From a virus: a stretch of 33,768 bases of DNA. This document shows, piece by piece, positions 22,211 to 32,721 of the stretch. Position 1 is the stretch's first letter, and each line of letters begins with the position of its first letter. The translations under genes and the position numbers were made by a program. Under the pieces are notes generated by a model. It was not told the origin of the DNA. It was given only the letters and a program-made list of their open reading frames with translations, and ran no database searches. The stretch lies in UHGV virus genome UHGV-0181805. One strand, written 5' to 3'.

Positions 22211-22286
22211 TGGTGCCGGTTAACGGATTTGAACCGCTACCTATTCACTTACAAGGCGACCGCTCTACCATTGGAGCTAAACCAGC
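22211..22286 (-). tRNA. tRNA-Thr (anticodon UGU)
   Basis: Hand-folded 76 nt: acceptor GCTGGTT/AACCGGC, D arm GCTC..GAGC with G18G19, anticodon loop CUUGUAA, T arm AGCGG-TTCAAAT-CCGTT, encoded CCA; one G.A mismatch in anticodon stem. Confidence 0.65.
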
Positions 22287-22291
22287 ATGTT

Positions 22292-22366
22292 TGGCGGGAC
22301 AGCGTGGACTCGAACCACGATAAGAAGGTTAACAGCCTTCCGTAATGACCTTTATACGACTGACCC
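22292..22366 (-). tRNA. tRNA-Asn (anticodon GUU)
   Basis: Hand-folded 75 nt: perfect anticodon stem GAAGG/CCTTC with loop CUGUUAA, T arm CGTGG-TTCGAGT-CCACG, encoded CCA; one T-T mismatch in acceptor stem and a weak D stem. Confidence 0.55.
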
Positions 22367-28904: not shown

Positions 28905-29138
28905 TTATGCTGCTGATGCTCTACGCGATACGAACACCAGGTTTTCCTTTTTCACGGGTTTATAGGCCGTGAAATTACGAGTAGCTTCTTCGATTGCATT
29001 CGCTTTATCAGGGGAAGCTCTTCGAAATCCATATGCAATCTGGTCAAGATAGCCAACTGAAGTTTTCGCTAATGCGGCGAGTCGCTTCCATTCCTCACTA
29101 GAAGCCTCTTTTCGCCAGCGTAGTAGTTCATTACTCAT
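28905..29138 (-). CDS. cro: Cro-like small HTH repressor
   Basis: 77 aa, divergent from cI across the operator region, GGAGG upstream; ...LAALAKTSVGYLDQIAYG... HTH-like. Confidence 0.6.
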   Translation of the reverse strand: MSNELLRWRKEASSEEWKRLAALAKTSVGYLDQIAYGFRRASPDKANAIEEATRNFTAYKPVKKENLVFVSRRASAA

Positions 29139-29251: not shown

Positions 29252-29956
29252 ATGGAAAACAAAGATATTCGCAAATCGAATCTGGCGTTTTTGCTAGATG
29301 AGCATAAAAAAATCGCGGGTAACACTAATGCAAGCTTTGCCGATAAGCTTGGGGTTAGCCCTTCTCAACTCACGCAAGTCTCCGGTGAAAAAAGCACTCG
29401 AAACATAGGGGATAAACTAGCAAGAAAATTTGAAGCCGCACTTGGGTTACCTAATGGGTGGCTTGATTTGGTACATGATGTAACACCAATTGCATCATGC
29501 TCAGATTCTTTAACTTTTGTCGGTCAGGTAAGAAAAGGGTTAGTGCGCGTGGTTGGTGAGGCAATTCTTGGTGTTGATGGTGCCATCGAGATGACCGAAG
29601 AGCGCGATGGGTGGCTCAAAATTTATAGCGATGATCCAGATGCCTTTGGCCTTCGTGTGAAAGGAGACAGCATGTGGCCTAGAATAAAATCAGGAGAATA
29701 TGTACTCATTGAGCCTAACACCAAAGTATTCCCGGGTGATGAGGTGTTTGTCAGAACCGTTGAAGGACACAACATGATTAAGGTTCTTGGCTATGACAGA
29801 GATGGAGAATACCAGTTTACAAGCATCAACCAGGACCATAGGCCAATAACGTTGCCTTATCATCAAGTAGCAAAGGTGGAGTATGTGGCTGGTATTCTGA
29901 AGCAATCTCGCCATCTGGATGACATCGAGGCAAGGGAGTGGCTGAAAAGTTCGTGA
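29252..29956 (+). CDS. cI: CI-type prophage repressor (HTH plus LexA-like S24 autopeptidase domain)
   Basis: 234 aa; N-terminal HTH region; C-terminal ...GDSMWPRIKSGEYVLIEP...GDEVFVRTVEGHNMIKVL... with Ser-Lys dyad context. Confidence 0.85.
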   Translation: MENKDIRKSNLAFLLDEHKKIAGNTNASFADKLGVSPSQLTQVSGEKSTRNIGDKLARKFEAALGLPNGWLDLVHDVTPIASCSDSLTFVGQVRKGLVRVVGEAILGVDGAIEMTEERDGWLKIYSDDPDAFGLRVKGDSMWPRIKSGEYVLIEPNTKVFPGDEVFVRTVEGHNMIKVLGYDRDGEYQFTSINQDHRPITLPYHQVAKVEYVAGILKQSRHLDDIEAREWLKSS

Positions 29957-30382
29957 CTTCATCGTCACATAGCTGATAGCCAATGGCCTGAAGAGACGTT
30001 TGGGTGAAGAGGATAGATGGAGTTTAATGGCCATGAGTATCACGCGGTCAAAAAGAAGTTCATCTATTCATTGAAAGCATAAGGCCATCTGAGTATATCC
30101 GTAATGATCTGGATATTGTCTATAACATCAATGACCGGACAATAGATATCGGTGAGCAGCGTCCTGTATGGCAGGGTGAGGCAGGTGAAAAAAACGTCCT
30201 GCCATCAACAAGAATCAAGTGCATCAGCTCTCTGGACAGATGGAAAATTTATTGGATGCAAAAAGATATGAAATAACACCTGTATAGCACGGAGCTTTCT
30301 CTGACCGATGCACTTGAAGTTGTTAGGGCTGACCCAGCCTGCTGTTTCTTTAGGTAAGAGAAAAGAGATTTAGGAGATGAAA

Positions 30383-30409
30383 GGTCGCAGAGGTGCGGCC
30401 TTTTTTATT
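30383..30409 (+). terminator. Intrinsic terminator about 430 nt downstream of cI
   Basis: GGUCGCA-gagg-UGCGGCC hairpin followed by TTTTTTATT. Confidence 0.65.
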
Positions 30410-30433
30410 GAGAGTGGATCTTGAACGGAAATT

Positions 30434-30477
30434 CTCAAGACTTGAGTCTTGCATGCAAATCAATTCCTGGATAAACT
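30434..30477 (+). promoter_or_regulatory. Candidate promoter with overlapping palindromic operator for the 173-aa gene
   Basis: Perfect palindrome CTCAAGaCTTGAG (30434..30446); TTGCAT (30449..30454) - 17 nt - TAAACT (30472..30477). Confidence 0.4.
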
Positions 30478-30509
30478 CGATCTGAGTCAATAACTTAGAG
30501 AGAGAGCAA

Positions 30510-31031
30510 ATGGCAAAGTCAAACGTTAGCGTGCAGGCATTCAAGGACTTCCTTGAAGAGCTTATGTCGCTGAACATAATGAAGGAGGCCACCGCTCGAA
30601 ATTTAAAAAACTCATCCGCTCGCCTCTTAACGGTAGTCCAAGAAGAGGAAATGGGTGATGTTACTCAGCTTGATGTGAATGAGCTTGCCGAGCGATACAT
30701 CAACGCAACTGAGCCGAAGCCTAGCGACAGCAGCATTACTGCATATAAAAGCCGCATGGAAAGTGCAATCAAAAAGTTTGTAGCTTTCCAGTCTGGTGAA
30801 GAAATCCCATACACTCCGATTGACAAAGAATCCAGTGAGGAAAAAGATTTGACTGGCGAACCAACAAAAGTCGAAGGCAAGGCTAATGCACTTCATACCT
30901 ATGATCTTCCAGTAGTTCTTCGACCTGAATCAGGGGTTACAGTAACGATTAAAGGCATTCCTAACGATATCACAAACGAAGAAGCCGAACGCATCTCTTC
31001 AATTCTGAAGGTTTACGTTCGGCCTCAATAA
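30510..31031 (+). CDS. Hypothetical 173-aa soluble acidic protein in the immunity-region cargo slot
   Basis: Clean ORF with GAGAG upstream; no TM segment or recognisable catalytic motif; sits between cI and pL where lambda carries rexAB and P22 sieB. Confidence 0.6.
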   Translation: MAKSNVSVQAFKDFLEELMSLNIMKEATARNLKNSSARLLTVVQEEEMGDVTQLDVNELAERYINATEPKPSDSSITAYKSRMESAIKKFVAFQSGEEIPYTPIDKESSEEKDLTGEPTKVEGKANALHTYDLPVVLRPESGVTVTIKGIPNDITNEEAERISSILKVYVRPQ

Positions 31032-31334
31032 TGCAAAAGCATTCAGCACAATGTCCAACTCCCCAGTCCGACATTGATGCTGTTTAACCAGAGCCTCCAA
31101 AAGGAGCCCTTGTTAAGGTACACAATATTTGCGATGTAACCTTAGCGCGTCTGGTACATTTTTTCAAGCGGTTGTAGGGCTGCCGCCAATATGAGAAAAC
31201 ACAGATGTCTACATACAATTTGAATGACCAATTCGATCGAGAAGTTCATGTGAATGCCTATGAACGGATAAGGCATGGAAATCTTGAACATGTGTGTGAG
31301 CATTATCGCTCAAGGCCACACCGCTAATCATCAA

Positions 31335-31360
31335 CCCGGCCTCAGCGCCGGGTTTTCTTT
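31335..31360 (+). terminator. Intrinsic terminator downstream of the 173-aa gene
   Basis: CCCGGC-ctcagc-GCCGGG followed by TTTTCTTT. Confidence 0.6.
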
Positions 31361-31538
31361 GCCTCTCGATCCCCCACCTAAAAAAAACATAACTCATTGT
31401 ATTTATTGAAAAACTGATTGATACAACTTGCTAAACCACGCAATCCAGATCTCCCTCAAATCTCTTTATTTATCCTGTCGAATTCCTACAACAAAATAAA
31501 ACACCATAAGAATCAATACGATATTTGAAAATCAAAAG

Positions 31539-31584
31539 AATTTATCATTTTGCTATTGCCATTAATTTATCATTCCGATAAAGT
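31539..31584 (+). promoter_or_regulatory. OL operators and candidate pL (-35 TTGCCA 31556..31561, -10 TAAAGT 31579..31584)
   Basis: 17-bp palindrome TTTATCattccGATAAA (31566..31582) in the promoter spacer; additional AATTTATCATT copy at 31539..31549; same motif and same -10 hexamer as OR/pR. Confidence 0.5.
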
Positions 31585-31652
31585 TTGCCCATCAGCAGGA
31601 CGCACTACTCACCAGGGCGGTGAATATACAACGATTCGAATATGAATCTACG

Positions 31653-31667
31653 GCGCTGACAAAGCGC
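31653..31667 (+). promoter_or_regulatory. nutL boxB RNA hairpin (P22 type)
   Basis: GCGCTGACAAAGCGC is identical to the P22 nutL boxB sequence as I recall it; about 60 nt downstream of candidate pL; matches the P22-like Arg-rich motif of the N protein. Confidence 0.7.
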
Positions 31668-31977
31668 AATAACCAAAGTGAACTTTGGGGTGTGGTGAAG
31701 CCAGCTAGTCACTGGCAAGTGCTTACCTACTGTTGAGCGGTGAAGCGCTCCCAACGCTAGCAATAGCGTGGACGAGATGGGGAGCCGCGGGCGATAAGGC
31801 CGCCATAACGCGCACGTTGTCGCATGGAAAAATCACTGGGGTGCCGGTTATACCCCTCCGAATGAGACTCAACAAGCTGGAGCTAGACTACCAGCCACCA
31901 CACCACCAAAGTTCATCAGGAGGTCTATATGACACGCAGAGCGCAATAACCAAAGTGAACTTTGGGGTGTGGTGAAG
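31663..31977 (+). repeat. Perfect 38-bp direct repeat A: copies 31663..31700 and 31940..31977
   Basis: AGCGCAATAACCAAAGTGAACTTTGGGGTGTGGTGAAG present twice; contains local hairpin CCAAAG-tgaa-CTTTGG. Confidence 0.9.
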
Positions 31978-32121
31978 GGTTCATGGACGGGAATATGTCG
32001 CACGTAAAGCGGCGAGGCCTGCGGGACTATTGCCGAATTGAAGTAGGCCGAAACAGGTCGAAATGGGTCTCCCACCTACCACACCACCAAAGTTCATCAG
32101 GAGGTCTATATGACACGCAGA
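31897..32121 (+). repeat. Perfect 44-bp direct repeat B: copies 31897..31940 and 32078..32121, each with SD and ATG
   Basis: ACCACACCACCAAAGTTCATCAGGAGGTCTATATGACACGCAGA present twice; second copy is the N start, first copy starts a 6-codon ORF. Confidence 0.9.
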
Positions 32122-32493
32122 ACTCAGTTCAAAGGCAATTCACGTTCTCGTCGTCGTGAGCGTTTAAAGGCAAAGGCATTAGCTAACGGCGTACTGGCCC
32201 GCGAAGAAGCAATAAGTTCAGAAGTATTACACCGCCCTACTCTAAGCAGAGCGCAGATTCAGGCTAAAGGTACTCACGAAACGCCTGAGCGCATAGAAGA
32301 CGCTAAGCCAATTAAGTTCATGGCACAGGACGTGATCTGGCAACAGAAAGAATACAGACGCAATCTGGAGCGAGCGGCCATTGTGTACGCGAATGAGTTT
32401 GGACATAAGCAACCAGAAACTGGTGTATGTCTTCCAAACGTAGCCATTTACTCGGCAGGCTACCGGAAATCAAAACAACTGACGGCGAGGTAA
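32110..32493 (+). CDS. N: Transcription antiterminator N (P22 gene 24-like)
   Basis: 127 aa; N-terminal Arg-rich motif GNSRSRRRERLKAKA (compare P22 N GNAKTRRHERRRKLA); C-terminus LPNVAIYSAGYRKSKQLTAR versus recalled P22 ...LPGVALYAAGHRKSKQITAR. Confidence 0.8.
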   Translation: MTRRTQFKGNSRSRRRERLKAKALANGVLAREEAISSEVLHRPTLSRAQIQAKGTHETPERIEDAKPIKFMAQDVIWQQKEYRRNLERAAIVYANEFGHKQPETGVCLPNVAIYSAGYRKSKQLTAR

Positions 32494-32721
32494 GTGATGA
32501 ATCAGACATACATTCCATCATGCTTGAGAAATCTGCCAAAGCAGAAAGCAAAGCCCCGCAAGCAAGCCATAAAGGACGCTAAGGCAGAGGTTATTGATCA
32601 AGCAATACAATTGCTCAGGGAGGAGTTAAGAAGTGGCAAGCTCGAAGGAATGATGATGCCCTATCAGCGCGGATATCTATCGGCGATTAGTAAGTTGGAA
32701 GTATTGAAGAGTGAATTATGA
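32494..32721 (+). CDS. Hypothetical early-left protein, 75 aa
   Basis: ORF directly after N in the pL operon. Confidence 0.45.
   Translation: MMNQTYIPSCLRNLPKQKAKPRKQAIKDAKAEVIDQAIQLLREELRSGKLEGMMMPYQRGYLSAISKLEVLKSEL

Follow-up and report, generated by a model that had tools for sequence, protein, structure and literature searches.

In lambdoid prophages, the slot between cI and N is a known hotspot of exclusion genes expressed in the lysogen, rexAB and bstA among them (PMC7067206). We analyzed this slot in UHGV virus genome UHGV-0181805, a stretch of 33,768 nucleotides (nt) referred to here as the window, in which it is occupied by a 173-amino-acid (aa) open reading frame (ORF), ORF173. 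A first-pass annotation made from the letters alone had described ORF173 as an isolated gene in the rexAB/sieB-equivalent position, with its own promoter, palindromic operator, and terminators. We find that ORF173 is the first gene of a two-gene cassette and, with somewhat less than even confidence, favor reading this cassette as a toxin-antitoxin (TA)-like addiction or abortive-infection module in which ORF173 is the neutralizer and probable auto-repressor. This reading accounts for the toxin and immune-effector partners of ORF173 relatives, the strict linkage of the two genes, the autonomy of the cassette, its independence of immunity type, and a published failure to delete the counterpart of ORF173.

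Like lambda rexAB, P22 sieB, BTP1 bstA, and 933W stk, ORF173 lies in the cI-to-N slot, has the orientation of cI, and is expressed from the prophage, and lambda and 933W carry a downstream terminator and junction homologous to those of the cassette. Unlike these genes, to none of which it has sequence or domain similarity, ORF173 has its own promoter behind a terminator and does not ride the cI transcript, and the phenotype reported for its counterpart is apparently lethal deletion rather than exclusion. The type II TA modules with exchangeable partners (parDE and the “hyperpromiscuous” Panacea/PanA systems) resemble the ORF173 family in having a small upstream protein with diverse partners, an inverted repeat over the promoter, apparently lethal deletion of the upstream gene, and carriage on mobile elements. 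ORF173 differs from them in combining a core-binding-like domain with a beta-beta-alpha module, with no ribbon-helix-helix (RHH), AbrB, Phd, or helix-turn-helix (HTH) fold detected, and the prophage cassette differs in that the partner is a micro-ORF of 40 to 60 aa, of putative toxicity, beyond a 150- to 175-nt spacer. A further TA system, paaR2-paaA2-parE2, resides in a cryptic O157:H7 prophage (PMC8630535). It is alike in being a TA system of an O157:H7 lambdoid prophage and in the link of the ORF173 family to ParE toxins, but we found no homology between ORF173 and PaaA2 or PaaR2, and the window has no ParE gene. The slot, the “moron” design, and TA logic are already known; what appears undescribed is the domain architecture, together with the micro-ORF partner, the spacer RNA, and how large the unannotated family is.

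The + strand of the window corresponds to the leftward direction of lambda in the lambdoid early region. The features of the region are as follows.

28905..29138, - strand: cro
29252..29956, + strand: cI (Peptidase_S24)
29978..30378, + strand: DUF3024 pseudogene, a neighboring cargo remnant (frame from 29959, interrupted by stop codons, about 30000-30360)
30379..30409, + strand: upstream intrinsic terminator (stem 30379-30404 plus T-run)
30434..30451, no strand assigned: candidate operator (palindrome plus overlapping inverted repeat)
30449..30477, + strand: weak sigma70-type promoter (-35 TTGCAT, 30449-30454; 17-bp spacer; -10 TAAACT, 30472-30477)
30510..31031, + strand: ORF173, 173 aa
31032..31204, + strand: conserved noncoding spacer, 173 nt, between ORF173 and the small ORF
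31205..31327, + strand: small ORF, a type A micro-ORF of 40 aa (counterpart VT2-Sakai H0092; phrog_21154, E value of 5e-8)
31333..31360, + strand: downstream intrinsic terminator (stem 31333-31354 plus T-run; from a terminator scan)
about 31520-31590: OL/pL
32110..32493, + strand: N

The cassette is ordered as terminator, weak promoter with inverted-repeat operator, ORF173, spacer, 40-aa ORF, and terminator. As first annotated, ORF173 lies between cI and the pL/N region in the cargo slot of lambda Rex- and P22 SieB-type genes, with cI, ORF173, and N all on the + strand. The gene is not isolated, given that the conserved 40-aa ORF precedes the downstream terminator and the DUF3024 pseudogene precedes the upstream one. 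The cassette has the hallmarks of a phage “moron” (its own promoter and terminators, a position between conserved phage genes, and variable presence), and, judged from its sequence, the region 30379-31360 is a portable, transcriptionally autonomous unit of this kind. The DNA of 29978-31462 is 97.8% identical to that of VT2-Sakai/Sp5 and related Shiga toxin (Stx) phages, and the cassette itself (30383-31360) is 99.7% identical to the Sakai DNA and is carried by 234 of 5426 complete Escherichia coli genomes. The counterparts of ORF173 (VT2-Sakai orf22, H0093, ORF c63, ECs1184 [ECs_1184], and Sp5 ORF23) are annotated as hypothetical proteins throughout. ORF173 is a real gene, as first called: its ratio of nonsynonymous to synonymous substitution rates (dN/dS) is 0.10 to 0.25 against orthologues from five genera, indicating purifying selection, and the protein is acidic (isoelectric point, 4.9).

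Both of the terminators proposed earlier hold up. The upstream stem folds with a free energy of -15.9 kcal/mol (z score, -4.16; 0 of 200 shuffles as good) and is predicted to insulate the cassette from read-through of the cI transcript. The same hairpin is found in Salmonella and Proteus, and Yersinia and Cronobacter carry a different hairpin plus T-run at the equivalent place. The downstream stem (-14.6 kcal/mol; z score, -3.6) lies in a stretch that is 84 to 92% identical to the sequence adjoining the exclusion genes of lambda, HK542, and 933W and that is labeled “terminator” in 933W and AP000422. It is the counterpart of the lambda/933W immunity-cargo terminator and marks the conserved right junction of the slot.

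The proposed sigma70 promoter survives as a weak but conserved one with an inverted repeat over its -35 element. TTGCAT-N17-TAAACT agrees with only 7 of 12 consensus positions, and a consensus promoter scan of 30410-30509 found none. In a comparison of six genera, the hexamer positions and 17-bp spacing were kept in E. coli, Salmonella, Yersinia, Cronobacter, and Proteus (TTGCnn-N17-TAGAAT or TAAACT), and the Serratia upstream region aligned only in part. A GATC at 30479-30482, just after the -10 hexamer, is invariant in all six genera, and the 5′ untranslated region CAATAACTTAGAGAG is invariant or nearly so. The perfect palindrome noted earlier, CTCAAGaCTTGAG, is present exactly at 30434-30446 and overlaps a longer inverted repeat, CAAGACT-TG-AGTCTTG (30436-30451), whose right arm extends into the -35 hexamer. 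An inverted repeat with 7-bp arms is expected by chance about 0.05 times per 100 bp, and therefore the significance of this one rests on its conservation: AAGAC..GTCTT at the -35 position is retained in five of six genera, with a changed spacer. Unrelated inverted repeats overlap the -35 element at other family loci (for example, GATTCATCGATC..GATCGATGAATC in L093). These repeats count in favor of a TA-like module because an inverted repeat overlapping the -35 element is the usual layout of auto-repressed type II antitoxin promoters.

As a separate observation, GATC (Dam) sites are abundant in the promoters of the family (L084, L088, L093, L094, L102-L104, L013, L025, and the window) and often fall within the -35 element (TTGATC) and within long inverted repeats such as GATTCATCGATC..GATCGATGAATC. 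Such sites could make expression methylation sensitive or SeqA sensitive.

The enterobacterial-type scan covered 28 diverse viral loci, and in every one the family gene is followed, about 150 to 175 nt downstream, by a micro-ORF of one of three mutually unrelated types: type A (40 to 44 aa), type B (57 to 61 aa; phrog_33859), or type C (47 aa, Cys-rich). Type B also follows a 33%-identical relative on an environmental metagenome contig (L047; E value of about 1e-11). The 40-aa ORF of the window is under strong purifying selection (dN/dS, 0.03 to 0.13), and its Yersinia version contains an in-frame 9-nt indel. For the three micro-ORF types, searches returned only function-less PHROGs and, in the case of type C, a weak hint of a treble-clef zinc finger. 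We consider the 40-aa ORF a candidate partner or effector of ORF173.

The spacer that separates the two genes is nearly identical in E. coli, Salmonella, Yersinia, and Cronobacter. Its consensus fold reaches -51 kcal/mol with only two compensatory pairs, so that its structure is not proven; it is probably a structured leader. In the last predicted helix, a U-run (31160-31167) pairs with the Shine-Dalgarno region of the small ORF (31191-31199). A hairpin (31044-31082; -16.6 kcal/mol; z score, -6.6) immediately follows the stop codon of ORF173, and Serratia and Proteus likewise have a hairpin after the family gene stop, with a different sequence. Rfam, searched with 29950-32200 (including the spacer and the N leader) at gathering and relaxed thresholds, gave no match. 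The spacers that precede type B and type C micro-ORFs correspond to an RNA of about 160 nt (L004, 5520-5680; L084-L104; L013 and L082, 4534-4695). In the type B spacer, 12 of 29 pairs show compensatory changes, which is good support for a structured RNA, and a covariance model of this Proteus-type spacer, R1, detects the Serratia type C spacers at 90 to 93 bits. Model R1 did not match the window spacer, so homology between the two spacer classes is undemonstrated. The type B/C RNA may control translation, serve as a processing site, or act as an RNA antitoxin.

Distant full-length members of the family, 21 to 34% identical to ORF173, are found as the first genes of tight pairs. A ParE toxin gene lies 18 bp downstream of the family member at three loci (L025-L027), where we found no other candidate antitoxin. 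At L023 and L024, the gene 26 bp downstream encodes a CAP12/Pycsar-type TIR protein (PADLOC PDC-S35; E value of 6.6e-78). The downstream gene at L043 encodes an oligonucleotide cyclase of the cyclic oligonucleotide-based antiphage signaling system (CBASS; E value of 5e-98), and that at L048, only 1 bp away, encodes a Hypoth_Ymh protein matching the PD-Lambda-3_B and Aga_HEPN models. Other downstream partners are SAP-domain proteins and several proteins of unknown function. The C-terminal beta-beta-alpha module also occurs free-standing, in proteins of 41 to 69 aa; one of these (P0223; 55 aa, the module alone) overlaps the start of a ParE gene at L019. In another protein, P0218, a deletion has fused the family N-terminal domain to a ParE C terminus.

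Such an arrangement might also be expected if ORF173 were mainly a transcription regulator of whatever lies downstream, comparable to the WYL-type or CapH/CapP-type regulators of defence operons, and here controlled the micro-ORF. Family members always come first, ahead of widely differing partners, one of which is a complete CBASS cyclase operon; inverted repeats are present at the -35 element; and the predicted fold resembles a DNA-binding domain. We regard this explanation as unlikely, however. The ParE of parDE systems requires a protein neutralizer, and the ParE-linked loci offer no candidate antitoxin apart from the family member; moreover, the C-terminal module alone pairs with ParE, and the charge of the N-terminal domain is atypical of DNA binders.

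Remote homology searches and structure prediction, which the first-pass annotation had suggested for the protein, yielded recognizable domains but no curated family. AlphaFold, run with a 46-sequence alignment, predicted with confidence a four-helix N-terminal domain (aa 8-94) and a beta-hairpin plus helix (aa 130-168, the beta-beta-alpha module), joined by an acidic linker (about aa 101-129) that is disordered in the model (aa 103-127). The N-terminal domain resembles the core-binding (SAM-like) domain that characterizes the N terminus of tyrosine recombinases (lambda Int, XerD, IntI4; PDB 3nrw and 2oxo). ORF173 differs from these enzymes in ending at residue 173, in the acidity of the N-terminal domain in its clade, and in having, after the N-terminal domain, only the linker and a 40-aa module: neither a C-terminal R-H-R-Y catalytic domain nor a Phage_integrase match was found, and therefore it is not a recombinase. 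Neither ORF173 nor the family profiles had significant matches among Pfam, NCBIfam, PADLOC, and PDB sequences, and a Foldseek search of ORF173 against viral (BFVD) and PDB structures was likewise without a significant match. ORF173 does match PHROG 2602, which has no known function. An exhaustive profile search placed 653 representative clusters in the family at an E value of ≤0.001; the 150 of these that were listed are mostly proteins of 160 to 210 aa that match nearly the whole profile.

Pfam matches to the known antitoxin DNA-binding folds (RHH, AbrB/MazE, Phd/YefM, and HTH) were absent from ORF173. We dropped the idea that the C-terminal module is a relative of AbrB, MazE, or ParD (hhalign probabilities of 0.7% for AbrB, 1.6% for MazE, and 0.2% for RK2 ParD). 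A role as a recombination directionality factor or integrase decoy was also set aside, as nothing connects the gene with att sites or int genes and its pattern of partners suggests a different role.

Two further observations concern the gene itself. The part encoding the linker and beta-hairpin (window 30810-30990; about aa 101-160) exists in two allelic forms that are discordant with the rest of the gene, one shared by the window and Cronobacter (…DKESSE…HTYDLPVVLRPESGVTVTIKGIPNDIT…) and the other by Salmonella, Yersinia, and Proteus (…ERQEEEE…SSYSLPVVIRPESG.TVTISGIPTDLT…), suggesting recombination within ORF173. In three metagenomic sequences (L020, 4576-5210; L021; and L022), the gene is frame-shifted into a 151-aa ORF for the N-terminal domain and an overlapping 69-aa ORF for the C-terminal module. 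We rejected this as a new architecture; it is a frame-shifted copy of the ORF173 family, either a pseudogene or a programmed frameshift.

Experimental information on the counterpart of ORF173 comes from two studies, and our literature search found no other paper naming the gene. Mondal et al. (2016) made in-frame deletions throughout Sp5 in a K-12 lysogen and could not delete ORF23 (ECs1184) or ORF21 (ECs1180); deletion of ECs1184 “appears to be lethal to the host,” and a role in maintenance of lysogeny was proposed (PMC5155283). A TRAPP survey of the RNA interactome detected ECs1184 in cultures of enterohemorrhagic E. coli (EHEC) Sakai (false discovery rate, 0.065; 2025; PMC7618764). The protein is therefore made in cells that carry the prophage, in agreement with the lysogen expression anticipated in the first-pass annotation. 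A gene whose deletion is apparently lethal in a lysogen is more likely to have an antitoxin or repressor-like role than to be a dispensable exclusion gene.

The same detection could mean that ORF173 is an RNA-binding protein (RBP) acting on host RNAs or on the conserved, probably structured spacer that follows its gene. This is very improbable: ECs1184 was enriched in the interactome, but its signal in the PNK cross-linking assay was like that of the sfGFP negative control, and it was judged “not a strong RBP” (PMC7618764). No RNA-binding domain was detected in ORF173.

The deletion result also bears on the possibility that ORF173 is a stand-alone superinfection-exclusion or defence protein, directed against incoming phage DNA or proteins, with the micro-ORF as an unrelated passenger. 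The slot is a known home of exclusion genes, among them rexAB and bstA (PMC7067206), the cassette has its own promoter and terminators, and relatives of ORF173 neighbor defence genes. A dispensable gene should delete easily, though, and ECs1184 did not, while strict linkage to a micro-ORF across 33 to 100% identity argues for a two-part unit. Furthermore, ORF173 has no match to RexA, RexB, SieB, or known defence proteins in Pfam, PHROGs, NCBIfam, or PADLOC. We therefore give stand-alone exclusion little weight. The earlier equation of ORF173 with rexAB/sieB is right as to the slot and wrong as to similarity to these genes or to any PADLOC model; the earlier suggestion of exclusion or defence cargo is compatible with the pairing of relatives with ParE, TIR, CBASS cyclase, and HEPN-like proteins, whereas the apparently lethal deletion points elsewhere.

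The survey of the cI-to-pL slot proposed in the first-pass annotation placed the family gene there in prophages of Salmonella, Serratia, Yersinia, Cronobacter, and Proteus, and viral loci have it in the same slot. In these five genera, it is the N-proximal cargo gene, 170 to 245 bp after a preceding gene, and the upstream neighbor varies (none, DUF3024, a 141- to 160-aa gene, or a 345-aa gene). A protein identical at 172 to 173 of 173 residues adjoins six different cI repressors that share 22 to 71% identity with one another and include a lambda-type cI, and in one relative, the cassette gene replaces rexAB beside a lambda-type cI. The cassette is also found outside the cI-N slot: on a viral contig (L088, 583-8497), the sole locus with scanned neighbors in the viral group of 41 to 46% identity, a 44%-identical cassette with a type B micro-ORF lies in a lambdoid nin region among DUF1627, DUF1367, and RusA genes. 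The cassette therefore uses two different cargo hotspots, and comparative genomics indicates that the moving unit is gene plus spacer plus micro-ORF, with exchangeable parts. A collection-of-genomes scan gave one locus only.

This mobility weighs on the explanation closest to that of the Sp5 study, in which ORF173 serves the phage itself by helping to keep lytic genes silent (for example, as a co-repressor or anti-antirepressor), and its loss would induce the prophage and kill the cell without any need for a dedicated toxin partner. ECs1184 could not be deleted from the Sp5 lysogen, and the authors of that study suggested that it is needed for stable lysogeny (PMC5155283); ORF173 adjoins cI in the same orientation, and its core-binding-like domain could bind DNA. 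Yet we consider such a factor improbable. It is weakened most by the identical protein serving with six unrelated cI/operator sets, including one with a lambda-type cI, because a factor bound to one repressor-operator pair would not be so freely exchangeable. In addition, a related cassette is located in the nin region, other relatives occupy nonphage chromosomal loci, the gene always travels with a micro-ORF, and it is missing from most lambdoid phages (present in the 234 of 5426 E. coli genomes mentioned above).

For the TA-like module that we tentatively favor, the following mechanism can be proposed. ORF173 would be made in the lysogen and act as a neutralizer. Through its core-binding-like N-terminal domain, it would bind the inverted repeat at the -35 element of its own promoter and auto-repress the cassette, and its C-terminal beta-beta-alpha module, shared with the small protein encoded directly upstream of a ParE gene, would restrain a harmful partner. 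This partner would most likely be the downstream micro-ORF, whose ribosome-binding site is predicted to be additionally masked by the spacer RNA. If ORF173 were lost or inactivated, through a superinfecting phage or through loss of the prophage, the toxic activity would be freed, and the cell would be killed or arrested. In this scheme, the anatomy and conservation of the cassette, the linkage of its two ORFs, its independence of cI type, the toxin and effector partners of distant relatives, the failed deletion of ECs1184, and the detection of its protein are observations made here or published; DNA binding, auto-repression, direct neutralization, toxicity of the micro-ORF, and any antiphage effect of the cassette are what we infer.

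Several observations weigh against the scheme. The 40-aa ORF is not known to be toxic, is not hydrophobic, and has no toxin-family match. The 173-nt spacer is atypical of type II operons, in which the two genes usually abut. ORF173 is matched by no PADLOC model, and its N-terminal domain is, as in many family members, acidic to neutral, an uncommon charge for a domain that binds DNA. Roughly half of the distant chromosomal relatives lack a closely linked gene downstream, and the toxin-linked relatives are only 21 to 34% identical to ORF173, so that function may have diverged. Finally, the failed deletion of ECs1184 is a negative result obtained without a complementation or double-deletion control, and ECs1180, a second and unrelated gene, was equally undeletable.

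A more ambitious version of the proposal is possible but doubtful. ORF173 would belong to a large undescribed superfamily of promiscuous neutralizers or regulators, built from a core-binding-like domain and a beta-beta-alpha module, that partner effectors of the ParE, TIR, CBASS, and HEPN types. Those of lambdoid prophages, Stx2 phage Sp5 among them, would control a micro-protein via a structured RNA leader, making a three-part addiction or abortive-infection cassette of protein, RNA, and micro-ORF on which lysogen viability depends.

The analysis offers a testable explanation for a ten-year-old result, the inability to delete ORF23/ECs1184 from Shiga toxin phage Sp5, and assigns a predicted fold and a probable role to an unannotated family of at least 653 sequence clusters. 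It also suggests that antitoxins or regulators of a new architecture are paired with familiar toxins and immune effectors. The cassette is found in clinically important O157:H7 Stx2 prophages, in which it may affect how stable the prophage is and how phages compete with one another; both bear on the spread of toxin genes.

The neighborhood of the cassette has features of its own. Three-frame translation revealed DUF3024-like sequence with several stop codons right after cI and before the upstream terminator. An intact 113-aa DUF3024 gene occupies the equivalent place in a Proteus mirabilis prophage (L004, 4422-4760; PF11225; E value of 2.9e-27). Similarity to VT2-Sakai begins at window position 29978, and the pseudogene travels together with the cassette in Sp5-type phages. 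Between the cassette terminator and pL, prophages of Salmonella (L010, 4861-5064) and Serratia (L013, 4870-5040) carry a small - strand gene of 56 to 67 aa that is absent from the window.

The N leader (31660-32126) is tandemly duplicated, with two families of direct repeats (58 nt with 91% identity at a spacing of 181 nt, and 41 nt with 98% identity at a spacing of 277 nt). Complementarity between TTTGGGGTGTGGTG and CACCACACCACCAA, beside the N ribosome-binding site, closes each unit, and the first copy includes ATGACACGCAG, the N start codon plus 8 nt. The arrangement may represent a duplicated RNase III-type or nutL leader structure. The position just after N (window 32494-32721) holds a small gene of phrog_5305; in Sakai, the same position is occupied by ECs_1180 (phrog_2471; L018, 3209-3460). 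Farther away, two adjacent tRNA genes lie on the - strand at 22214-22366 (each about 55 bits against Rfam RF00005), a pair typical of the region upstream of the toxin and late genes in Stx-type lambdoid prophages.

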